In this document: piece by piece, positions 3,086 through 15,575 of the stretch
Numbering within the stretch: the stretch's first letter is position 1
Layout: each line of letters opens with the position of its first letter
Assembly: GCA_964593235.1 (NCBI GenBank)
Contig: CAZQGS010000026.1
Coordinates: forward strand, 22,133-86,132
Origin: an uncultured Gemmatimonadota bacterium
Lineage (GTDB): Bacteria; JAAXHH01
DNA: 64,000 bases
Reading direction: 5' to 3'
The notes under the pieces: generated by a model
Databases searched by the model: none
What the model saw: the letters and a program-made list of their open reading frames with translations, nothing else
What the model was told of the DNA's origin: nothing
Translations under genes and position numbers: made by a program

Positions 3086-5569
3086 ATGGCGGTAGAACAA
3101 CACGATAATATTCAGCCCATTTTTATCGAAGACGAAATGAAAAGTTCTTATCTCGACTTCTCCATGAGCGTAAATCTGTCTCGGGCGATTCCAGATGTAC
3201 GGGACGGATTCAAGCCATCACAACGGCGTATACTTGTGGCGATGCGTGATCTGAACCTTACACCCAGCAGGCCCACCCGTAAATGCGCCAAAATCGTCGG
3301 GCAAACAATAGGTGATTACCATCCACATGGTGATCTTGCTGTTTATGATACCCTAGCTCGGATGGCACAGCCTTTTAGTATGCGCTATCCGATGGTTTTT
3401 GGCCAAGGGAATTTCGGGTCCATAGATGGCGATCCACCAGGAGCTATGCGTTACACTGAATCTAGAATGTCCCGTTTGGCTATTGAAATGATGGAGGATA
3501 TTGACAAAAACACAGTTAATTTCATGCCTAATTATGATGAATCTAAAGATGAGCCTACGGTATTGCCGGGGAAGTTTCCTAATCTTCTTTGTAACGGGTC
3601 TCTTGGTATCGGTGTTGGCATGGCTTCTAGTTTACCTTCTCATAATCTTAGTGAGGTAGTAGATGGAATTGTTGGGGTAATAGAAAATCCTGAGATATCG
3701 ATAGATGAAATCGCTGAGAAAATAAAAGGACCAGATTTTGCTACAGGAGCTATAATTTATGGTCGGAATGCAATACAAGAATACTTCAATACTGGTCGTG
3801 GCAAGGTTAAGGTCCGTGCAAGAACCCAAATCGAAACTCACGAACAAAACGAAAAAGAAACAATCGTCATAACCGAGATTCCTTATAAAGTTAACAAATC
3901 AACTCTGATTGAAAAAATTGCTGATCTAGTTCGTGAAAAGCAAATACTGGGAATTACAGATATCAGAGATGAGTCTGATCGATCTGGCCTCCGAATTGCT
4001 ATAGATGTACGAAGGGATATTCCAGCCAACATTATACTAAATCATCTTTTCAAAATGACTCCTCTCGAAACAACTATTGGGGTCACAATGTTGGCTTTGG
4101 TTGATGGTCGACCTAGGGTATTAAATATTAAGGAATGTATTCAACACTTTATTGACCACCGCCATGAAGTATTAGTCAGGCGTACATCTTTCGACCTTGA
4201 GAAAGCCGAACAACGTGCTCACATTGTTGAAGGTTTAAGGGTGGCTCTGGATAATGTGGATCGTGTTATCGAGATATTGCGAAGTTCTCAGACCGGCGAG
4301 GAAGCTATGACAGTTCTTTTGAGCGAATTTGGATTGTCACGGGCTCAGGTAGAAGCAATTCTAGATATGCGACTTCAGCGATTGACAGGTTTAGAAAGAA
4401 ATAAACTAGAGGACGAATACAATGAACTTGTCGCTCAAATTAGTGATTTCAAGGATATTCTATCTCAGTTGCCCCGCCGGATGCAAATTATAAAAGAAGA
4501 GATGATTGAACTTAAAGAAAAATATGGCGATGATAGAAGAACCGAATTAATCGATATAGAAGGTGATCTAAGTATTGAAGACTTAATAGCAGATGAGGAA
4601 ATGGTTATAACCATTTCTCACGCTGGTTACATCAAACGGATCCCCATGGATACTTATACGAGCCAAAATCGTGGTGGTAAGGGTATTACAGGAATGAAAA
4701 CGCGCGATGAAGATTTTGTAGAGCACCTGTTTTCTGCATCAACTCATTCGTATATACTGTTCTTTACAAACCGTGGTAAATGCTACTGGCTGAAGGTTTG
4801 GGAGATACCAGAAGCTGGACGAACTGCCCGTGGCAAAGCGATGGTGAATTTACTTGAACTTGGTCAGGGGGAAAGTATAGCAGCTTTCCTTCCAATTCGG
4901 ACCTTCGATGACGAACATTATATTATGATGGTTACACGAGGCGGGCTTGTGAAAAAGACCGTTCTTTCGGCTTATGGAAATCCTCGAAAGAACGGGATTG
5001 TTGCTTTGAATATCCTCGAAGGAGATGCACTTATCGAAGCATTATTAACTAGTGGAGATAATGACATTGTTATTGCTAGCCGTAATGGCCAAGCTGTTCG
5101 ATTCCACGAGGCTGATGTTCGGACAATGGGAAGAGGTGCCCAAGGTGTTAGGGGCATCCGGCTTGCAGAGGGAGATAGAGTCGTTGGAATGCTAGCTTCT
5201 GATCGGGATGCTACCTTGCTTTCCGTTACTGAAAATGGATATGGTAAAAGAACAGATATCGAAAATTATCGCTTAACCCGAAGAGCAAGCAAGGGCGTTA
5301 GTAACATCCGAACCAGTGAGCGGAATGGATTGGTCGTATCGATCCATGCAGTTGCTGACAAAGATGAACTTATGATCATTACTATGAATGGTCTGATTAT
5401 CCGTCTTTCAGTCAGTGACTTACGTCCTATAGGTAGAAATACCCAAGGTGTTAAATTGATAAACCTTGGTGAGGGAGACCGAGTAATAGATATTTCTAAG
5501 ATTACGCCCAATGAAGAAGAAAAATCAGAAGACATAGAAAACACTAATTCGTCAGAGCAAGCAGACTAA
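3086..5569 (+). CDS. gyrA: DNA gyrase subunit A
   Basis: 827 aa. N-terminal RAIPDVRDGFKPSQRRIL, QRDR-equivalent region, active-site Tyr context (AMRYTESRM), C-terminal beta-pinwheel repeats, acidic tail. Confidence 0.97.
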   Translation: MAVEQHDNIQPIFIEDEMKSSYLDFSMSVNLSRAIPDVRDGFKPSQRRILVAMRDLNLTPSRPTRKCAKIVGQTIGDYHPHGDLAVYDTLARMAQPFSMRYPMVFGQGNFGSIDGDPPGAMRYTESRMSRLAIEMMEDIDKNTVNFMPNYDESKDEPTVLPGKFPNLLCNGSLGIGVGMASSLPSHNLSEVVDGIVGVIENPEISIDEIAEKIKGPDFATGAIIYGRNAIQEYFNTGRGKVKVRARTQIETHEQNEKETIVITEIPYKVNKSTLIEKIADLVREKQILGITDIRDESDRSGLRIAIDVRRDIPANIILNHLFKMTPLETTIGVTMLALVDGRPRVLNIKECIQHFIDHRHEVLVRRTSFDLEKAEQRAHIVEGLRVALDNVDRVIEILRSSQTGEEAMTVLLSEFGLSRAQVEAILDMRLQRLTGLERNKLEDEYNELVAQISDFKDILSQLPRRMQIIKEEMIELKEKYGDDRRTELIDIEGDLSIEDLIADEEMVITISHAGYIKRIPMDTYTSQNRGGKGITGMKTRDEDFVEHLFSASTHSYILFFTNRGKCYWLKVWEIPEAGRTARGKAMVNLLELGQGESIAAFLPIRTFDDEHYIMMVTRGGLVKKTVLSAYGNPRKNGIVALNILEGDALIEALLTSGDNDIVIASRNGQAVRFHEADVRTMGRGAQGVRGIRLAEGDRVVGMLASDRDATLLSVTENGYGKRTDIENYRLTRRASKGVSNIRTSERNGLVVSIHAVADKDELMIITMNGLIIRLSVSDLRPIGRNTQGVKLINLGEGDRVIDISKITPNEEEKSEDIENTNSSEQAD

Positions 5570-5588
5570 GCGAAATAATAAAAAGCCC

Positions 5589-5616
5589 TTGACACAGTTG
5601 CCTCGAGCAATATATT
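5589..5616 (+). promoter_or_regulatory. sigma70-like promoter for lysW (TTGACA 5589-5594, 16-nt spacer, TATATT 5611-5616)
   Basis: Near-consensus -35/-10 hexamers about 65 nt upstream of the lysW ATG. A GGGAGG Shine-Dalgarno at 5670-5675 precedes the ATG at 5681. Confidence 0.5.
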
Positions 5617-5680
5617 GCGTCCGTTCTTACTCAGGAGACTTTGCAAAACCATCGATGATATAGCATAAAGGGAGGAAATT

Positions 5681-5845
5681 ATGGGAGCCTGCCCGGAATG
5701 TGGTGCTGCGACAAACTTAAATGATGATGTTGTGGAAGGCGAAATAATAGAGTGTGAAGAATGTGGAGCAGAACTTGAGGTAGTAAGTATAAATCCCCTG
5801 GAACTTGCGTTGGCGCCTGAAGAGGAAGAAGACTGGGGAGAATAA
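5681..5845 (+). CDS. lysW: LysW amino-group carrier protein (alpha-aminoadipate/glutamate carrier), 54 aa; below ORF-track size cutoff
   Basis: Translation [54 protein letters not shown]. It has the N-terminal CPxCG...CExCG zinc-ribbon and the acidic tail ending in the diagnostic EDWGE C-terminus, whose terminal Glu is the substrate attachment site in LysW. Strong SD, and lysX/Y/Z/J/K homologues lie immediately downstream. Confidence 0.9.
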
Positions 5846-5899
5846 TTTTTGGTTTGTAATAGATTAACTTCGTTTTCAGAAGGAACAAGAGAGATTGAA

Positions 5900-5977
5900 A
5901 TGAGCAAACGAATGAAACATAAACATGAAAATCATGATTGTGATTTACGTTTGTCCGCTCATCACAGTCCAGGTTAG
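5900..5977 (+). other. Candidate 25-codon leader mini-ORF (MSKRMKHKHENHDCDLRLSAHHSPG) between lysW and lysX
   Basis: ATG preceded by a purine-rich GAGAG. 5 His and 3 Lys codons in 25. Its stop codon lies inside a CCAGGTT/AACCTGG hairpin (5969-5998), just upstream of a strong terminator. Could be chance. Confidence 0.25.
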
Positions 5978-6015
5978 TTCAAGAAACGGAAAACCTGGAT
6001 AAAAAGGAACTGATA

Positions 6016-6066
6016 GGAGCCGCGTTCCTCTTCAGATTTGAGCGAAGAGGCCGGCTCCTTTTTTAT
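6016..6066 (+). terminator. Intrinsic terminator/attenuator hairpin between lysW and lysX
   Basis: GGAGCCG..TTCCTCTTC / GAAGAGG..CGGCTCC form a 14-bp interrupted stem (6016-6058) followed by TTTTTTATGTTGTT. Confidence 0.7.
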
Positions 6067-6094
6067 GTTGTTAATCGGGGATAGGGTCAAATAA

Positions 6095-6946
6095 ATGGAA
6101 ATAGGTATTGTATTGTCAAGGATCCGTAAGGATGAGAAACGACTGATTTCAGAGGCTAGTCATCGAGGATTCGGTGTTACAACTATTGACAACACTCAAC
6201 AGGTATTCAAACTGAATAGTTGTCCTGACAGTTTTGATGTAGTGCTAGAACGTTGTGTAGATCACCATAGGGCGGTTTATGTGCTAAGCTTATTCGACTA
6301 TTGGGGGATACCAACAGTGAACCAACAGTCCGTTGTTGAAACTTACGGAAATCGTTTGTTGACAAATCTGGCATTAAAAGACAATGGAGTACCTTTTCCT
6401 GAAGTCAGGTTAGCTTATACGCCAGGGTCTGCCTTAGAAGCTATGGAAACTATTGGATACCCTATTGTACTGAGGCCGGTTGAGGGATCAGGGAATCAAC
6501 TAGTCTCTCGTATCCAAGAAAAACATACGGCAGCCACTATCCTAGAGCATAAGAGGATTTTGGGTACCTATCATCATTCAATATTTTTTATTCAAAAATA
6601 TATTGAAAGCCCAGGCCATGATATCCGCGCATTCGTTGTTGGTGATCAAACAGTCGCTGCCATATCCGTATTAACCCACCACTGGATAGGATCAATTGCT
6701 GACGGTGGTCTAGTAGAGAACGAACCGGTTACAGAAGAATTAAATCAAATTGCTGTTTCTGCTGTTAAGGCTATTGGTGGGGGCATAGCTGTTGTTGATA
6801 TGATCCGTACAAAAACCCAGTGGTATGTTCAAGAGATGGGCCCACCAACAGGGCTGTCTGAAGCATCTGATGTTACGGGAGTTAATATACCCCAGAAAAT
6901 CATTGAATATGTGGCTAATATTGTGGAACAAGGAGGGAAAGTATAA
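6095..6946 (+). CDS. lysX: LysW--substrate ligase, ATP-grasp RimK/LysX family (LysX or ArgX paralogue 1)
   Basis: 283 aa, RimK-type ATP-grasp fold ([21 protein letters not shown]..., [10 protein letters not shown]). First enzyme gene after lysW. The stop overlaps the start of the next paralogue. Confidence 0.8.
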
Positions 6947-7785
6947 TGAAGATAGGCATGTTACTTTCTATTGTTTCCAAAGAACAGAAAATGTTATTTG
7001 AAGCTGCTAGCAAACGTGGTGTTTGTTTCGAAAGATTGGATGACCGGCGCCTCATATTTGACCTTGAGAATCAAAAGTATAATCATGATGTGATTCTTGA
7101 AAGGTGCATCAATCACTCAAGAGCCCTCTATTCTTTAAGAATACTTAATGCTAGCGGCATTAAAACTGTTAATTCGTATGATGTAGCGCGTATCTGTGGA
7201 AACAAATTTTTGACAACGATGGCATTGGTTAATAACAATGTTCCGACACCCAAGGCTTGTGTTGCTTTTACGGCGGAGTCTGCCCTTGATGCTATAGAAT
7301 CTATGGGATACCCAGTTGTGCTCAAACCACCCATAGGTTCCTGGGGTCGCCTAATCGCGCGGATTAATGACCGTAATGCAGCAGAATCGGTGCTCGAACA
7401 TAAGGAGACATTAGGATCTTTTCATCATTCAGTGTTTTACATTCAGGAGTACGTTGATAAACCAGGACGGGATATACGTTCCTTCGTAATTGACGGGCAG
7501 ACTATTTGTGCTATTTATCGTTATTCCGATCATTGGAAAACTAATACTGCTCTGGGAGGAACAGTAGCTGCTTGCCCAGTAGATGGAGATGTAGGAAAAT
7601 TGTCTATTCAGGCTGCCGAGGCAGTGGGCGGGGATGTTGTAGCTGTAGACCTGCTGGAATCTCCAGATGGTATAGTTGTCAACGAAGTTAATTATACAAT
7701 GGAATTTCGGAACAGTATACAACCTACCGGGGTAGATATTCCGGGACGAATTATCGATTATTTGATAAAGGTAGCTCAATCATGA
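6946..7785 (+). CDS. Second ATP-grasp LysX/ArgX-family ligase (paralogue 2)
   Basis: 279 aa, colinear with the previous protein ([21 protein letters not shown]..., [10 protein letters not shown]). Tandem duplicate. Two ligases with a single Z/Y/J/K set resembles the LysX+ArgX architecture. Confidence 0.8.
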
Positions 7786-8825
7786 TTAAAGTCTCTATCG
7801 TTGGTGCTTCTGGATACGGCGGCGGAGAGTTGTTACGTCTTCTTCTTGCTCACTCTGAAATAGAGATTCAGCAGGTTACTTCTGAATCGTTAGTTGGTAA
7901 ACCTGTTGGACGTTCTCATCCAAATCTACGTAGGCTTACTGACCTAAAATTCCATGCTATGGATGATTTAAAACCCTGTGACGTTATTTTTCTATGCCTA
8001 CCGCATGGGGAAGCTATGAAACAATGGGACTCGCTGTCTGGTCTTGCTGATCGTGTTATTGATCTAAGTGCCGATTTTCGCCTTCGCAATCCATTGGACT
8101 ACCCAATTTGGTACGGGCATGAACATACCAAGCCGGGAGTATTGAATCACTTTGTGTATGGTTTAGCCGAATTATACCGAGAAGAAATTAGGAATGCTGA
8201 ATTTGTGGCCTGTACGGGATGCTTAGCTGCTACAGCCATCCTATCTTTGGCGCCTTTGGTCAAGACTGGTAGTATCGATCCTTCAAGGTTATTTTTGGAA
8301 GGGAAAATTGGTTCGTCAGCAGGTGGTAATAAATCAGATCACTCCACTCACCATCCCGAGCGGAGTGGCTCTGTACGATCATTCAAGCCAACAGGCCATA
8401 GGCACACAGCGGAAGTAATACAGGAGTTAACTGTCGATGGGCAGGTTCCCCAGGTCCATTTTTCTGCGACAGCAATAGAAATGGTGCGAGGAATCCTGAT
8501 GACAAGCCATGTTTTTGTAGATAAGGATTTATCCGAAAGAGAAATTTGGGAGATTTACAGAGAAGTTTACGAAAACGAGCCTTTTATTCGTATTATTAAA
8601 GAACGGAATGGTATTTACCGATATCCCGATCCAAAAATCCTCTCAGGTACTAATTTTTGTGATATTGGATTTGAACGAGATAAGCACAGTGATCGTTTAG
8701 TAGTCCTAGGTGCCTTAGATAACCTAGTTAAAGGAGCTGCTGGACAGGCTGTTCAGGCTATTAATATAATGCATGGATGGGATGAGCAGACAGGTTTACA
8801 ATTTCCTGGGTTGCACCCTATATAG
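7782..8825 (+). CDS. lysY: [LysW]-aminoadipyl/glutamyl-phosphate reductase (ArgC/LysY family)
   Basis: 347 aa. [24 protein letters not shown](P)-binding N-terminus. A Cys is present in the region ([17 protein letters not shown]) where ArgC/LysY carry their catalytic Cys. ArgC-like C-terminus. Overlaps the upstream gene by 4 nt. Confidence 0.85.
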
Positions 8826-8831
8826 GAATTC

Positions 8832-10100
8832 ATGATGAACTACAAAGCACCTAGAGGCACCTACGATATCTTGCCCGAAGATCAATCCTATTGGCGTTAC
8901 GTGATCGAAACAACACATCGTGTTTGCCGGCTTTATGGTTACGAGCAAATAGATGTTCCAATATTCGAGCAGACGAACCTCTTCAAAAGGAGCGTTGGTG
9001 AATCCACAGATATTGTAGAAAAAGAGATGTATACCTTTGTTGATCGTAGTGATGAGAGTATGACTTTGCGTCCTGAATTAACTGCGGGCATCTGCCGAGC
9101 CTATGTTGAACGTAAACTTCATGGGCGGCCACAACCGTTAAAGTTTTTTACGATTGGCCCGGCGTTTAGGTATGAACGTCCTCAGGCTGGTCGTTATCGT
9201 CAGTTCTATCAGCTAGACGTTGAGGCTTTAGGTAGCCAGGATCCAGCTATAGACATAGAGATTATGCAAGTGGCATGGCAGATTTACGAGGAAATTGGTT
9301 TAGGTGGATTATCTTTCCAAGTTAATAGTACCGGATGTCCCGAATGCCGTCCAGGATATCTTAGCCTTCTTAAAGAATGGTACGAATCCCGTATATCAGG
9401 TCTTTGTCAAGACTGCCAGCGACGCTACGGACAGAATCTACTCAGATTGTTAGATTGTAAAAATGAAGCCTGCCGAGAAATATCTGATAGAGCTCCGAAG
9501 ATTACCGCTGCATTATGTGGCGACTGTGGCAATCATTTTGAAGAATTGAGATCTTATTTGGATATATTGAAACGTCCGTATGAGGTTAATCATCGGCTTG
9601 TTCGAGGATTAGACTACTATACAAAGACGGTATTTGAAGTCTGGGCCTCTGGCATTGGTGCTCAAAATGCGGTAAGTGGAGGTGGACGTTATGACGGCTT
9701 AGTTAAAGTGATAGGCGGTCCCGAAACCCCAGCAATAGGTTTTGCTTCGGGGATAGAACGTATTATCCTCGCAATGAAACAAGAAGGTATTATTCCTCCG
9801 GAACTGGCTAACCCAAAAGTTTTTATCGCTTACATTGGAACGGCTGCAAAATCAGCTGCTGTCCTTTTAGTGCAGGAACTTCGAAGTGGAGGAATCAGTG
9901 TGGCTGCTCTTTGGGATGATCGTAGTCTAAAATCTCAAATGAAGCAGGCAGATCGGGTTGGAGCAACATACACTGTAATCATAGGTAATAATGAAATAAC
10001 AAGTGGCAAATATATATTGCGAAGGATGGGAGAAAGCGCCCAGATTGTTTTAAGTCCTTCGGAAATTTTGCCAAGGTTAAAAGATGGAGATTTCTCATGA
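8832..10100 (+). CDS. hisS: Histidyl-tRNA synthetase (class II), embedded in the lys operon
   Basis: 422 aa. HisRS signature PRGTYDILPED near the N-terminus, class II motifs (TLRPELTAG, FRYERPQAGRYRQFYQ), HisRS-specific Cys-rich insertion, C-terminal anticodon-binding domain. Its stop overlaps the lysZ start (ATGA). Confidence 0.85.
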   Translation: MMNYKAPRGTYDILPEDQSYWRYVIETTHRVCRLYGYEQIDVPIFEQTNLFKRSVGESTDIVEKEMYTFVDRSDESMTLRPELTAGICRAYVERKLHGRPQPLKFFTIGPAFRYERPQAGRYRQFYQLDVEALGSQDPAIDIEIMQVAWQIYEEIGLGGLSFQVNSTGCPECRPGYLSLLKEWYESRISGLCQDCQRRYGQNLLRLLDCKNEACREISDRAPKITAALCGDCGNHFEELRSYLDILKRPYEVNHRLVRGLDYYTKTVFEVWASGIGAQNAVSGGGRYDGLVKVIGGPETPAIGFASGIERIILAMKQEGIIPPELANPKVFIAYIGTAAKSAAVLLVQELRSGGISVAALWDDRSLKSQMKQADRVGATYTVIIGNNEITSGKYILRRMGESAQIVLSPSEILPRLKDGDFS

Positions 10101-10894
10101 TCGTGATCAAAACAGGAGGGAGTAGAGGTATTAATATTGATTACGTTCTTGCGGATCTTGCTTTTCAAACAGAGCCACTTGTGTTTTTGCATGGGGCGTC
10201 TGACGAATTAAATCAAATATCCGAGCGGCTAGGTAAACCTCCTCGAATGGTCACATCGCCTTCTGGGTACACCAGTAGGTACACCGACTCAGGAACCCTT
10301 GATATTTTTAATATGGTATACTGTGGTAAAATAAACACTCGTATCGTTGAAAAACTTCACCAACTGGGGGTTAATGCTGTTGGACTAAGTGGTGTTGATG
10401 GTAGACTTCTTGAGGGTAAAAGAAAATCTACTGTCCGTATCATTGAGGAAGGGAAGAAGAAACTGCTTAGAAATGATTTTACGGGGCGTGTTGAAAAGGC
10501 GAACGTAAATCTTCTTACACTTCTTCTTGGCCAAGGTTATCTACCAGTCGTCAGTCCTCCGGCTATTAGTTATGAAGGTGAAATTATCAATGTCGACGGC
10601 GATAGGGCTGCTGCCGTGATAGCAGAGGGACTCGGAGCTGATAGGTTAATTATACTCTCTAATACACCAGGTTTTCTGAAAGATGCGGATGCCGAAGAGA
10701 CCTTAATACCACGGCTTAACCGAGATGATATTGACGATGTGATAAGGAAATATGCAAGAGGCCGGATGAAGAAGAAACTACTGGGTGCTCGGGAAGCCCT
10801 AGAGGCAGGTGTGGGTACGGTGATTCTTGGTGATGGTCGTATACCCAATCCAGTTACATTAGCTTTGCAGGGTAAGGGCACCGTAATTACGTAG
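10097..10894 (+). CDS. lysZ: [LysW]-aminoadipate/glutamate kinase (ArgB/LysZ amino-acid kinase family)
   Basis: 265 aa. MIVIKTGGS opening and GASDEL..., VVSP..NVDGDRAAAVIAEGLGADRLIILSNTPG AAK-family motifs. Confidence 0.85.
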   Translation: MIVIKTGGSRGINIDYVLADLAFQTEPLVFLHGASDELNQISERLGKPPRMVTSPSGYTSRYTDSGTLDIFNMVYCGKINTRIVEKLHQLGVNAVGLSGVDGRLLEGKRKSTVRIIEEGKKKLLRNDFTGRVEKANVNLLTLLLGQGYLPVVSPPAISYEGEIINVDGDRAAAVIAEGLGADRLIILSNTPGFLKDADAEETLIPRLNRDDIDDVIRKYARGRMKKKLLGAREALEAGVGTVILGDGRIPNPVTLALQGKGTVIT

Positions 10895-10956: not shown

Positions 10957-12150
10957 ATGATACAGTACAAGGAGATGGAAGATAAAGTCTCTATGGGAAT
11001 TTTGCCAAAGAGAGACGTCGTAATTGTCCGTGGGAAAGGTACCAGATTATGGGATACCGAAGGCAAGGAGTATATTGATTGTGTAGGAGGACATGGGACA
11101 GCGAATATCGGTCATAATCATCCGGTTGTTGTAGAGGCGTTGGTTCGTCAGGCGGAGCAACTTATGATATGTCCCGATATGTTTTATAATAATGTAAGGG
11201 CCAAATTAGTAACAACATTAGCCCAAGTAGCTCCGGCAGGACTAGACCGTCTTTATTTGTGTAACTCAGGGACAGAAGCGGTGGAAGCAGCATTGAAATT
11301 CGCTCGTGTGGCAACTAAGAGAACAGGAGTGATCGCAGCGCAAAGAGGTTTTCACGGGCGGACTTTTGGAGCTCTAAGTGCAACCTGGAATCCTAAATAT
11401 CGAAAGCCATTTCAACCTCTTGTACCAGGTTTCTCTCACGTAAAGTATAACGACATGCAGGCGATTGATTCTGCTATAGATGATGGCACAGCCGCCGTTA
11501 TTTTAGAAGTAGTTCAGGGAGAAGGTGGTGTGCGCCTAGGTACCGAAAGCTACTTAAAGAAAGTGGAAGCCCTTTGCCGAAACCGGGGTTCATTATTGAT
11601 ATTAGATGAAGTGCAAACAGGTTTTGGCAGAACAGGTACTATGTTTGCCTGCCAGCACTACGATATACAGCCAGATATTATCTGCGTTGCTAAAGCAATG
11701 GCAGGTGGATTGCCAGTAGGAGCGGTCCTCTGTTCTGATTTGGTTAAAGAAATTCCAACGATGTCTCACGGTAACACCTTTGGTGGTAGCCCTATTGTCT
11801 GCGCGGCTGCTTTGGGTACGTTGAGTGTACTACAAAACTCAGGGATAATCCAAAATGCCCGAGAGATGGGGATCTATTTTAGAGAACGACTTGAAACACT
11901 AGACCTCAGGATTATCCGAGAGATTCGAGGTCTAGGCCTTATGATTGGACTAGAACTGAAAAGCCGAGTTTCACCGGTATTGAAAGGTCTTATGGACCAT
12001 GGTATATTAGCTTTGCCAGCAGGCAACACAGTACTACGTTTCTTGCCACCTCTATCAATAACAGCAGATGACATTGATCAGGTCGTAGATGCTCTAAAAA
12101 TAGTACTGAAGCCACTGGATAAAATTTCAACAGAAGAATCCACAGAATAA
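10957..12150 (+). CDS. lysJ: Class III PLP aminotransferase (ArgD/LysJ family)
   Basis: 397 aa. GTEAVEAALKFAR, DEVQTGFGRTG, PLP-Lys region (ICVAKAMAGGLP), SHGNTFGGSP. Confidence 0.85.
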   Translation: MIQYKEMEDKVSMGILPKRDVVIVRGKGTRLWDTEGKEYIDCVGGHGTANIGHNHPVVVEALVRQAEQLMICPDMFYNNVRAKLVTTLAQVAPAGLDRLYLCNSGTEAVEAALKFARVATKRTGVIAAQRGFHGRTFGALSATWNPKYRKPFQPLVPGFSHVKYNDMQAIDSAIDDGTAAVILEVVQGEGGVRLGTESYLKKVEALCRNRGSLLILDEVQTGFGRTGTMFACQHYDIQPDIICVAKAMAGGLPVGAVLCSDLVKEIPTMSHGNTFGGSPIVCAAALGTLSVLQNSGIIQNAREMGIYFRERLETLDLRIIREIRGLGLMIGLELKSRVSPVLKGLMDHGILALPAGNTVLRFLPPLSITADDIDQVVDALKIVLKPLDKISTEESTE

Positions 12151-12202: not shown

Positions 12203-13249
12203 ATGAGTGTTCAATGTGACGACCTGGACTTATTGCGTGGCCTAGTCGATCATTACAGTCCTTCTAGGCAAGAAGAAGATGCAGTATCTTTTCTAGTCGA
12301 ATCGATGGAACAGAGAGGTATAAATTCTTATATTGATGGGGCGGGAAATGCAGTTGGGGAAGTGGGTGATGGTTCCCCACATATTGCTCTCGTCGGGCAT
12401 ATAGATACTGTGAAGGGGATTATTCCCGTCCGAGAGAAATCTGGTCGTCTTTACGGTCGTGGAACAGTAGATGCTAAGGGTCCCCTCGCCACATTTGTGG
12501 CGGCCGTGTCTCGGTTTACTAAACTCGATCAAGGTAGGATTACAGTTGTAGGTGCTGTGGAAGAAGAGTGTCCGACATCACGAGGTGCCCGATATCTTGT
12601 TAATCAAATGAAACCAGATCATGTATTTATTGGTGAACCTAGCGGTTGGGATAGTATCACTATAGGATATAAGGGTATCGTTGGTTTCAATTTCAAGTTA
12701 AAACAATCTAATGCTCATTTTGCTGGCAATAATTTACGTTCGGGAGACAAAGCAATAACATTTTATAACAATCTTTTATCCTACCTTAACCAACATGAAA
12801 TCAAGAGTGAATTTGGATCTCCTCGACTTGAACTAAGGAGAATTAATACTCTTGATGAAGGGTTAACAGAAAATGTAGAGGCCTATTTTTCAGTGCGCAT
12901 TCCTCCTGGATATGGAGTGGAAAATCTTATTAACTTTATAGGAGTTCAGTCAGGAGATGCTGAAATAGAATGTGATCAGAAACTAGAGGGTATTATTGCG
13001 AAAAAAAATACTCCGCTAGTCCGGGCTTTGTTGCAAGGCATTCGTCAAGAGGGTGGGCAACCAACTTTCAAGAAAAAGACTGGCACTTCAGATATGTGTG
13101 TCATCGGTCCGGAATGGAAATGCCCCATCGTAGCATATGGTCCAGGAGATTCTAGTTTAGATCATACACCAGACGAACATATAATACTCGATGATTATCT
13201 TCGATCTATCCAAGTAATGACAAATGCGTTAAAATCCCTAATATTATGA
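12203..13249 (+). CDS. lysK: [LysW]-lysine/ornithine hydrolase, M20 (ArgE/DapE/LysK) family
   Basis: 348 aa. HIALVGHIDTV metal-binding motif, GRGTVDAKGPLA, M20 dimerisation-domain insertion. Last gene of the colinear block. Confidence 0.8.
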   Translation: MSVQCDDLDLLRGLVDHYSPSRQEEDAVSFLVESMEQRGINSYIDGAGNAVGEVGDGSPHIALVGHIDTVKGIIPVREKSGRLYGRGTVDAKGPLATFVAAVSRFTKLDQGRITVVGAVEEECPTSRGARYLVNQMKPDHVFIGEPSGWDSITIGYKGIVGFNFKLKQSNAHFAGNNLRSGDKAITFYNNLLSYLNQHEIKSEFGSPRLELRRINTLDEGLTENVEAYFSVRIPPGYGVENLINFIGVQSGDAEIECDQKLEGIIAKKNTPLVRALLQGIRQEGGQPTFKKKTGTSDMCVIGPEWKCPIVAYGPGDSSLDHTPDEHIILDDYLRSIQVMTNALKSLIL

Positions 13250-13324: not shown

Positions 13325-14545
13325 TTAAGTCCTAAGAATTAATTCTCCGATTTCCTTAAGTTGGCCTAAGTTTCTACATTCAAGAACATGGTCACAGTAT
13401 GGATGGTAGGTAGACATGACAGAATCATCGGTGTTCCAATATTGTTGAGGTTCAGGGTTCAGCCATATCATTTTGTGAACCCTGTTCTGTAACTCATCTA
13501 GAACCCAATCTTGGGGATCAAACCAGTTTGTCCGGGCGTCGCCGAGTATGACTAGTACAGTATTCTTAGATAGCGAAGGAAGATATTCGTCGTAGAACTG
13601 GTAAAAGGCCCTTCCAAAATCACTTAGTCCAAAAAAATTGAGCGTATGATCATTTTTAAAATTTTCGACAATTTCTTCAAATGTGTTGTGGTCAAAATTG
13701 TCCGTGACCTCTGTGATACGATCTACGAAAAGAAAACTACGGGCTCGACGGAATTGACTTTGCATTTCATGGACTAATTTTATAAAGAAACGGGCGACTT
13801 CCCAAACAGATCCTGAAACATCACATAATACAACCAATTCATTTTTCTTGATTTTCTGATGTTTGTGTATTATGTGAAAAGGCAGATTACCTGTGCGAAA
13901 ACTTCTTTGAATAGTTTTTTTAATATCGACTCTTCCATGGCCTGACTTTTTGAAGCGTAATGACTTACGTGTGACAAGATTTCGGGCTAAGTCTTCCACC
14001 GCGTCGTAGAGGTTTTCAATTTCACCTGATGGTAATTCCTGGTAAAGATCAATAGTATCGGAGCTTTTGTCCCTTTGCACTCCTGGTTCGGTGGCATTTT
14101 CTGAGGTTTGTTCACCCAAATTAATACGGGCTAGGATTTTCTTGAGGACATCATCTTCTGATTCTTGGCTATCAGAAGTCTCTTCGTTAGTCGAGGTATC
14201 ATTTTGTTTATCTTCGTTATCTGGGGTCCCATTTTCATCATTTTCTGAATGATTTTTAGAATCAGTATGATCTTCGGAACTTTGGTCTATGTCGTTTGGC
14301 AAATTATCACTGTCGTTATTTTGATCCTCTATCTCAACTAGGAAAAATTGTTCAAAAGCTTCTTCAAAAGTGGGGATATCCTCATTAGATTTTATCAAAG
14401 TAGTTCGGAGCGAGGTCTTGAATGTATGGCGTTCAATGAGGGGAGTATGCCTAAGCATTTCAGCTGCATCGAGGGTTTCTGCCATAGAGATGCGAATACC
14501 AGACTGCCGGAGCATTCTGACAAATTCAACGAGACGACAGATCAT
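13325..14545 (-). CDS. VWA-domain protein, CoxE-like (MoxR partner), with acidic low-complexity linker
   Basis: 406 aa. C-terminal VWA with MIDAS-like LVVLCDVSGSV. About 90-aa D/E/N/S-rich region (NDSDNLPNDIDQSSEDHTDSKNHSENDENGTPDNEDKQNDTSTNEETSDSQESEDD). Overlaps the MoxR gene by 20 nt. Confidence 0.75.
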   Translation of the reverse strand: MICRLVEFVRMLRQSGIRISMAETLDAAEMLRHTPLIERHTFKTSLRTTLIKSNEDIPTFEEAFEQFFLVEIEDQNNDSDNLPNDIDQSSEDHTDSKNHSENDENGTPDNEDKQNDTSTNEETSDSQESEDDVLKKILARINLGEQTSENATEPGVQRDKSSDTIDLYQELPSGEIENLYDAVEDLARNLVTRKSLRFKKSGHGRVDIKKTIQRSFRTGNLPFHIIHKHQKIKKNELVVLCDVSGSVWEVARFFIKLVHEMQSQFRRARSFLFVDRITEVTDNFDHNTFEEIVENFKNDHTLNFFGLSDFGRAFYQFYDEYLPSLSKNTVLVILGDARTNWFDPQDWVLDELQNRVHKMIWLNPEPQQYWNTDDSVMSTYHPYCDHVLECRNLGQLKEIGELILRT

Positions 14546-15575
14546 TGTAATTTTCTTTCATGATCCGATCAATATCTTCTCTATCCTTCATAAGTACGTT
14601 CAAGGTACTTGAAAGAATATCGCGCGACAAATTTTCTGCATTAAGGACCACTAATGCCATTGCCCAATCAATTGTTTCCGCAATGCTTGGTGGTTTGCGG
14701 ACGTTCAGTTTTCTAATTTTTTGAACAAAACGGACTACTTGGTTCGCTAGATCTTCGTTAAGGCTTGGGACTTTGCAAAGAACAATCCGAGTTTCCTGGT
14801 CAAACGGAGGATAGTCTATATAGAGATACAGACATCGTCTTCTCAAGGCTTCAGAAAGACTACGATTAGCGTTGCTTGTCAATACTACCAGTGGCCTTTG
14901 AGCAGCAGTCAACGTCCCTAGTTCTGGTATGCTCACCTGAAAATCACTGAGTATTTCCAGGAGGAAACTCTCAAATTCATCGTCAGCTCGATCTATTTCA
15001 TCTATTAGCAAAACAACGGGTTCTGTCGAAAGTATAGCTTCTAGTAGGGGGCGCGGGAGCAGAAAATATCTTGAAAAGAAAGCTTTCCCTTCCTGGTTTA
15101 GTGTTTCCACCGCATTAGCAATAGTCTCAGTCTCGTTTACTAGGTCCCCTATGCGGTCTTTTAGGATCTGTGTGTAAAGTAATTGTTTTGTATATTCCCA
15201 TTCATAAAGTGCCTTGGATTCATCCAGGCCTTCGTAACATTGTAATCTAATTAAACGTCGTCCAAGGGTTACCGAAAGCGTTTTTGCAATCTCGGTTTTG
15301 CCAACCCCAGGGGGTCCCTCAACTAGTAGTGGTTTCTCTAGGCGCTCCATTAAAAAAATTGGCGTAGCCAGATTTGAATCACAGATGTAACCGTGCGATT
15401 CAAACTGCTGTAAAACATCTTTGGCAGATTTGAAAGAAGCCATACTACTCCTGAAAGGATAACTAACCTGTGGGATTATAACGGTCAAAACAAAGGAATT
15501 ACAGTACCTCATTCTCTGAGGATAATAACTGCTCGTGCATCGCCCAAAATTACCAATTATATGACATAATGTCAA
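14526..15575 (-). CDS. MoxR-family AAA+ ATPase (CoxD-like)
   Basis: 349 aa. Walker A LVEGPPGVGKT, Walker B VVLLIDEIDRA, MoxR-type helix-2 insert and sensor regions. Operonic with the VWA protein. Confidence 0.85.
   Translation of the reverse strand: MTLCHIIGNFGRCTSSYYPQRMRYCNSFVLTVIIPQVSYPFRSSMASFKSAKDVLQQFESHGYICDSNLATPIFLMERLEKPLLVEGPPGVGKTEIAKTLSVTLGRRLIRLQCYEGLDESKALYEWEYTKQLLYTQILKDRIGDLVNETETIANAVETLNQEGKAFFSRYFLLPRPLLEAILSTEPVVLLIDEIDRADDEFESFLLEILSDFQVSIPELGTLTAAQRPLVVLTSNANRSLSEALRRRCLYLYIDYPPFDQETRIVLCKVPSLNEDLANQVVRFVQKIRKLNVRKPPSIAETIDWAMALVVLNAENLSRDILSSTLNVLMKDREDIDRIMKENYNDLSSR

Follow-up and report, generated by a model that had tools for sequence, protein, structure and literature searches.

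A tandem pair of LysX paralogs, one with a degenerate active site, in the lysine operon of an uncultured Gemmatimonadota bacterium

LysX-family enzymes and the tandem A-B pair

In Sulfolobus, two LysX-family paralogs that arose by gene duplication, LysX and ArgX, serve one pathway based on the carrier protein LysW; both have a complete catalytic set and are told apart by a five-residue specificity motif (Ouchi et al. 2013, summarized in PMC12998189). The specificity residues are F182, I192, T203, N258, and S259 in the Thermus thermophilus enzyme (TtLysX), all of them in the C-terminal half, and the motif reads F-I-T-NS in LysX, I-Y-V-GF in ArgX, and Y-I-T-NA in the bifunctional Thermococcus enzyme (PMC12998189). 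T. thermophilus has a single, self-sufficient LysX, which carries R8, R10, and E13, while the LysX/ArgX of Thermococcus kodakarensis (TkLysX; 5K2M) is also a single enzyme, with the Y-I-T-NA motif and both substrates. We describe here a different arrangement, found in a stretch of 64,000 nucleotides (the window) from an uncultured Gemmatimonadota bacterium (assembly GCA_964593235.1, contig CAZQGS010000026.1, positions 22,133 to 86,132 of the forward strand). A LysW-type lysine biosynthesis operon, located downstream of gyrA in the order lysW, A, B, lysY, hisS, lysZ, lysJ, lysK, contains two LysX-family genes, A and B. A has lost the catalytic set and B the N-terminal residues, so that the features combined in TtLysX are split over two proteins. 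We consider it probable, at roughly 60%, that duplication and complementary degeneration have produced a catalytic B and a non-catalytic, probably LysW-docking A.

The open reading frames (ORFs) of A (6095-6946, 283 aa) and B (6946-7785, 279 aa) lie on the + strand and share one base, the TAA stop codon of A (6944-6946) running into the ATG of B (6946-6948) as TAATG (6944-6948). A strong Shine-Dalgarno sequence, AAGGAGGG (6930-6937), stands 8 nt upstream. The two proteins align over 279 residues with no gap at 39% identity (E = 9e-81), far beyond chance, and each contains the LysX pre-ATP-grasp domain (PF22626) followed by the RimK-type ATP-grasp domain (PF08443). The original prediction, made from the letters of the sequence, of two colinear ATP-grasp paralogs at 6095-7785 with a stop-start overlap was thus correct. 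Both proteins match TtLysX (3VPD, 1UC8) best, in structure as well as in sequence, and the operon holds the same partner genes, lysW, lysY, lysZ, lysJ, and lysK, as in T. thermophilus; the fold is also shared with TkLysX, whose motif is found in neither A nor B.

For residue comparisons, the sequences of TtLysX, TkLysX, and Sulfolobus tokodaii ArgX (StArgX, 3VPB) were rebuilt from PDB alignments, and the residue numbering, which was confirmed, is that of TtLysX unless stated otherwise. Fourteen catalytic positions were tracked (K89, K129, W135-G136-R137, E170, D178, R180, R194, N202, D237, E249, N251, and E255). B retains all 14, and its best PDB match is TtLysX 3VPD (8.8e-86), with which it shares all catalytic residues. 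Because B also scores above the cut-off of TIGR02144, the curated LysX equivalog model (332.2 vs 275.6 bits), and carries the aminoadipate-type signature F-I-T-N-S, we take it from its sequence to be a canonical LysX, that is, a [LysW]-L-2-aminoadipate ligase.

A scores 243.7 bits against the same model, below the cut-off, and 10 of its 14 catalytic positions are altered (in A numbering R87, R127, G133-N134-Q135, K168, V192, S200, G249, and G253). The GSWGR loop, R194, N202, the Mg ligand N251, E255, and K257 are gone, and K89 and K129 are replaced by Arg. By motif position, K129, E170, W199, T201, and N202 correspond to K141, E178, F210, S212, and N213 of RimK, which contact ADP, and N251 corresponds to N262, which contacts the substrate (PMC10092738). 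A comparison of 46 A-clade sequences with 91 canonical LysX showed that K89, K129, W135, G136, R137, R177, Y193, R194, T201, N202, E240, N248, N251, E255, F256, K/R257, N258, and S259, which are invariant or nearly so in LysX, are replaced in A. The replacements are themselves conserved within the clade: E132, Q137, and T196 are found in 46/46 sequences, V194 in 45/46, R89 and L256 in 43/46, I203 in 42/46, and A259 in 40/46. At the specificity positions A reads F-I-I-E-A, a signature of neither the LysX nor the ArgX type, and the clade as a whole reads Y/F-V/I/L-I-E/D-A, mostly Y-V-I-D/E-A.

One of the ten changes, E170K, was rejected as inactivating in itself, since K170 is present in 64 otherwise canonical LysX. 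With this position set aside 9 of 13 positions are altered, and the case for inactivation lies with these nine, chiefly the GSWGR loop, R194, N202, and N251. Judging from these losses, A is probably a catalytically inactive pseudo-ligase. The LysX fold nevertheless appears to be kept: the AlphaFold2 model of A has a mean predicted local distance difference test score (pLDDT) of 90.3, with lower values confined to the former ATP-lid loop and the 191-210 loop, and it superposes on TtLysX bound to AMPPNP (3VPD) with a template modeling (TM) score of 0.93.

The K170 proteins (P0270-P0388) are a large group labeled Marinimicrobia, Bipolaricaulota, and FCB-group, in which QKF replaces QEY. Because these proteins are otherwise canonical, the adenine-site Glu at position 170 appears by sequence not to be essential in the LysX family.

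Divergence between A and B was predicted to be concentrated in the N-terminal half, as a substrate-recognition region, but the profile runs the other way. Identity is 42.9% over residues 1-140 and 35.3% over 141-279, falls to 26% over 211-279, and is lowest, at 13%, in a stretch of 30 residues near 230-260. Divergence therefore peaks in the C-terminal catalytic third, and the specificity residues are C-terminal too.

Complementary losses and maintenance of A

B lacks R8, R10, E13, and W72, which are near-universal in LysX, while A retains all four; part of the B clade has also lost G185, I200, and R205, again retained in A. This reciprocal pattern was seen in 12 of 12 distinct pairs (window, L001-L006, L023, and L025-L028), A having R8-R10-E13-W72 together with a degenerate catalytic set and B having the full catalytic set with I/V/T8, S/T10, Q/I13, and a residue other than Trp at 72. 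R10 and E13 are present in 103/103 LysX that are 62-66% identical to B and lacking in 18/18 full-length sequences at ≥72% identity. In a set of about 157 LysX/ArgX with intact catalytic residues, R10 is absent only in the B clade and in eight scattered outliers. In every A- or B-clade context that was read, the partner gene adjoins with a 1- or 4-nt overlap, and the synteny is the same (gyrA...lysW-A-B-lysY-hisS-lysZ-lysJ-lysK). The reciprocal losses therefore suggest duplication followed by complementary degeneration, with A and B needed together.

The residues kept in A may point to LysW. R173 of TkLysX bonds the C-terminal residue of LysW (PMC10375531), and the equivalent R180 is present in 46/46 A sequences and also in B. 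In RimK, S7, R8, and S14 touch the acidic tail of the substrate (PMC10092738), and A keeps the arginines of the β1-α1 loop, the region equivalent to this RimK loop. By homology with RimK, R8, R10, and E13 may serve to bind the LysW tail.

The A homologs form one tight clade, with 39 protein clusters listed at 59-99% identity in a word-indexed search; the next matches, at ≤49% identity, are ordinary LysX. Clustering at 50% identity reduces the entire clade to one library representative, and the next match stands at 43%. The orthologs carry the NCBI name 'RimK family alpha-L-glutamate ligase' and come from metagenome-assembled genomes (MAGs) labeled Gemmatimonadota or Latescibacterota; among the sources are MAGs from sponges and corals as well as Tara Oceans data. 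The reading frame of A is intact in all of at least 14 loci, with coupling to B kept. In the unsaturated comparisons (L001-L005), the ratio of nonsynonymous to synonymous substitution rates (dN/dS) was 0.018-0.145 for A and 0.047-0.125 for B, while dN of A is about 1.7 times that of B (0.163 vs 0.095 between the window and L001; 0.33 vs 0.18 between L001 and L006). Because conservation extends over the whole clade, dN/dS resembles that of B, and the LysX fold is predicted with confidence, A is being maintained and is not decaying.

The base composition of the window differs from that of its closest relatives with the same synteny, at 41% GC vs 51-66% (L001-L006 and L022-L025 compared), and the proportion of synonymous differences between them exceeds 0.9, which together indicate a strong AT shift in the lineage of the window. 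A metagenome contig, MDTE01068216.1 (L021), encodes operon proteins 99-100% identical to those of the window over the shared region.

A proposed non-catalytic partner and the alternatives

Our proposal is as follows. A marine clade with Gemmatimonadota- or Latescibacterota-labeled MAGs would descend from an ancestor in which the LysX gene was duplicated, and the two copies would then have degenerated in complementary ways. B would ligate alpha-aminoadipate to the C-terminal Glu of LysW, while A would have lost the residues that bind ATP-Mg and activate the carboxylate, leaving a pseudo-ligase with the LysX fold. Translational coupling would cause the two to be made in a fixed ratio. Most likely, the two work as a hetero-oligomer in which the part of A is to dock LysW, to present it, or to aid or regulate B in some other way, and LysX would here be an obligate two-protein enzyme. 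This model predicts that B needs A, and that A binds LysW but not ATP.

Such partnerships of a degenerate paralog with an active enzyme have precedents. HisZ is the pseudoenzyme partner of its active paralog HisG. The hetero-oligomeric aminotransferase Ser4/Ser5 is encoded by tandem genes, one copy of which is without a catalytic residue (PMC11726168). While the HisZ/HisG and Ser4/Ser5 complexes were shown experimentally, an A-B complex, which we think most likely, is suggested by reciprocal loss, coupling, and co-occurrence.

Several points weigh against this proposal. R8, R10, E13, and W72 are assigned their role by homology with RimK and may instead belong to an oligomer interface. A was not placed as sister to B in the neighbor-joining tree, and it is possible that one copy was acquired by transfer; shared residues and congruent A and B subtrees suggest duplication within the lineage. 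The tree was rejected for dating the duplication, because A, with its long branch, is placed unreliably, and only the congruence of the subtrees was used. With regard to inactivity, the E170K case warns against reading too much into one substitution, and K89R and K129R count as conservative changes (half of the A clade even keeps K129). Since D178, R180, D237, and E249 remain in A, it might still carry out some altered chemistry.

The original prediction was that A and B are a LysX/ArgX pair as in Sulfolobus, one ligating alpha-aminoadipate and the other glutamate to LysW, which would make the operon one for both lysine and ornithine/arginine. Sulfolobales do have tandem or clustered LysX paralogs that divide the substrates between them (PMC12998189), and two LysX-like genes follow lysW in other metagenomic loci as well (L015, beside argG-argH, and L019). 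Moreover, position 203 is hydrophobic in A (Ile) as in ArgX (Val), and K200/L205 of B is reminiscent of R200/L205 of StArgX. What stands of this prediction is that the two are translationally coupled LysX-family paralogs in a LysW carrier-protein operon; the division of substrates does not fit. StArgX shows 0/14 catalytic deviations against 10/14 in A and keeps all the catalytic residues that A has lost, so A is not a divergent ArgX, and substitutions expected to inactivate an ATP-grasp ligase are just what one copy carries. Comparison of the substrate-discriminating residues gave the aminoadipate type for B, and F-I-I-EA in A is unlike I-Y-V-GF. LysZ and LysK exceed the cut-offs of lysine-specific NCBIfam models, and no arg genes occur among the window ORFs scanned. 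We therefore regard a LysX/ArgX pair as very unlikely. That A is a functionless relic, a decaying duplicate still awaiting loss, might be argued from the many catalytic residues gone and from its 1.7-fold higher dN. The data on selection and conservation already amount to a refutation of this reading: the frame is intact in at least 14 loci with coupling to B, dN/dS is only 0.02-0.145, and 46 sequences down to 59% identity keep clade-specific invariant residues on a confident fold.

It is also conceivable, albeit unlikely in our judgment, that A has been neofunctionalized, its remodeled pocket binding another ligand (e.g., lysine, the end product, or another basic compound), so that A acts as an allosteric sensor, modulating B or sequestering LysW (like HisZ for HisG), or carries out new LysW chemistry. 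The active-site replacements are non-random and fixed within the clade. They remove basic residues that bind phosphate or carboxylate (R137Q, R177H, R194V, R205D/A/E, and K257S/T/A) and add acidic ones (E132 in 46/46 and E/D258 in 40/46), while D178, R180, D237, and E249 remain, and the strong purifying selection argues for a specific function. However, the charge argument is a residue count partly offset by E170K, E240R, and E255G, and the reading has no known ligand or precedent. As a sensor, moreover, A would again be a non-ligase working with B or LysW, and to that extent this reading overlaps with the non-catalytic partner that we prefer.

Other loci with more than one LysX-like gene or with a divergent copy were compared. 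In unrelated metagenomic lineages, lysW is followed by two LysX-like genes in L015 (7001-9864) and L019 (251-1982), and by one divergent LysX-like copy in L018 (1081-1962). The divergent copies in these three loci have an altered GSWGR loop and mostly intact catalytic residues; judging from their sequences, they may be bacterial LysX/ArgX-like, dual-specificity pairs. Because they keep most catalytic residues, they were rejected as examples of the same phenomenon as A and B. In L014 (3-1498), a canonical LysX is followed by a heavily degenerate copy, P0142, and then by lysY. P0142 was rejected as a member of a wider pseudo-LysX family, since every relative at 59-62% identity has an intact catalytic set and P0142 is a lone, independently degenerate copy.

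The operon, its leader, and implications

The gene lysW (5681-5845, + strand) encodes an amino-group carrier protein of 54 aa with a zinc ribbon and a C-terminal EEEEDWGE tail (TIGR01206, 69.4 bits vs a cut-off of 53.2; Pfam Zn_ribbon_LysW, 1.2e-20). It is preceded by a near-consensus σ70-like promoter at 5589-5616 (TTGACA, 16 nt, TATATT; 11/12 matches) and is separated from A by a 249-nt spacer. The remaining genes are likewise on the + strand. The lysY/argC-type reductase gene (7782-8825; TIGR01850, 1.3e-116) overlaps the stop codon of B with its start (ATGA), and hisS (8832-10100), for a histidine--tRNA ligase with its anticodon-binding domain (TIGR00442, 478 bits vs a cut-off of 286.75), overlaps the start of lysZ with its stop (ATGA). 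They are followed by lysZ (10097-10894), for the [LysW]-aminoadipate kinase (NF010659, 380 bits vs a cut-off of 223), a lysJ/argD-type aminotransferase gene (10957-12150; TIGR00707, 449 bits vs a cut-off of 410; LysJ model, 457 bits, below its cut-off of 700), and lysK (12203-13249), for the [LysW]-lysine hydrolase (NF003367, 383 bits vs a cut-off of 363). Within the lysine operon, the full-length hisS is thus inserted between lysY and lysZ, and the insertion is kept in every relative examined (L002, L023, and L025-L028). No arg or alpha-aminoadipate-pathway genes were found among ten further window ORFs scanned. Beyond lysK, on the - strand (13325-15575), the neighbors resemble a MadB-family AAA ATPase (336 bits vs a cut-off of 475) and a MadC-family VWA-domain protein (180 vs 600), both below the curated cut-offs.

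The spacer between lysW and A contains a conserved leader ORF of 25 codons, MSKRMKHKHENHDCDLRLSAHHSPG (5900-5977, + strand), rich in Lys and His codons, whose 5' and 3' halves pair as a long hairpin. A second hairpin, TCCAGGTT...AACCTGGA (5968-5999), spans its stop codon and shows, in an alignment fold, compensatory changes relative to L001-L005 (GGTCCG...CGGACC). It is followed by an intrinsic-terminator-like hairpin (6015-6064) with arms AGGAGCCgcGTTCCTCTTC and GAAGAGGCCGGCTCC and a run of six T (TTTTTT), almost invariant across the subclade. The leader ORF contains 3 Lys and 5 His codons in alternation (M-S-K-R-M-K-H-K-H...), which is striking because the operon downstream holds both lysine genes and hisS. 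Seven loci (L001-L005, at about 5800-5970, L020, and L022) share this ORF at the same length and with most of its nucleotides conserved. Nucleotide conservation of the spacer is much higher than expected, and the leader is nearly invariant even though the genomes differ in GC content by more than 20% and synonymous sites in the flanking genes are saturated. Deeper relatives (L006, L023, and L025) have a different GC-rich hairpin with a T-run at the same place.

We put forward 5900-6064 as a candidate Lys/His-sensing attenuator of the operon. In the lysine cluster of Thermus, transcription is reportedly attenuated through a leader peptide, a short ORF with regulatory Lys codons that precedes a terminator upstream of the alpha-aminoadipate-pathway genes; here, in contrast, the ORF alternates Lys and His codons, the operon includes hisS, and no antiterminator pairing was found. 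Attenuation is thus no more than a hypothesis, because a search of 5400-6300 against Rfam gave no meaningful match and the antiterminator was not identified: in constrained folding with the KHKH region masked, the terminator persisted in 4/4 sequences, and visual inspection showed only weak pairings (5-8 bp). Given its own putative promoter, lysW may be transcribed independently of the terminator-gated A-B-lysY-hisS-lysZJK.

Taking all of this together, we tentatively propose, in the knowledge that the whole is somewhat less probable than an even chance, that LysX here is an obligate two-protein enzyme formed by duplication, degeneration, and complementation. A would hold the LysW-docking determinants (R8, R10, E13, W72, and R180) and possibly a remodeled sensor pocket, B would be inefficient alone, and a previously undescribed Lys/His dual-codon leader would control the operon, including hisS.

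LysW-mediated lysine and arginine synthesis serves as a model for the evolution of carrier-protein pathways and of substrate specificity, and the paralogous LysX/ArgX have so far been described as two active ligases. The label of LysW-aminoadipate ligase that IMG gives to some A-type proteins is likely a misannotation, and pathways reconstructed automatically could take A and B for LysX plus ArgX and so acquire a spurious arginine route. Our literature search for a LysX pseudoenzyme or an inactive ATP-grasp paralog in carrier-protein pathways found nothing relevant. If the proposal is true, pathways with an amino-group carrier protein would have in A their first described case of a pseudoenzyme subunit, as would the RimK/LysX branch of ATP-grasp ligases, and the pair would represent a natural subfunctionalization into enzyme and pseudoenzyme within the LysW system.

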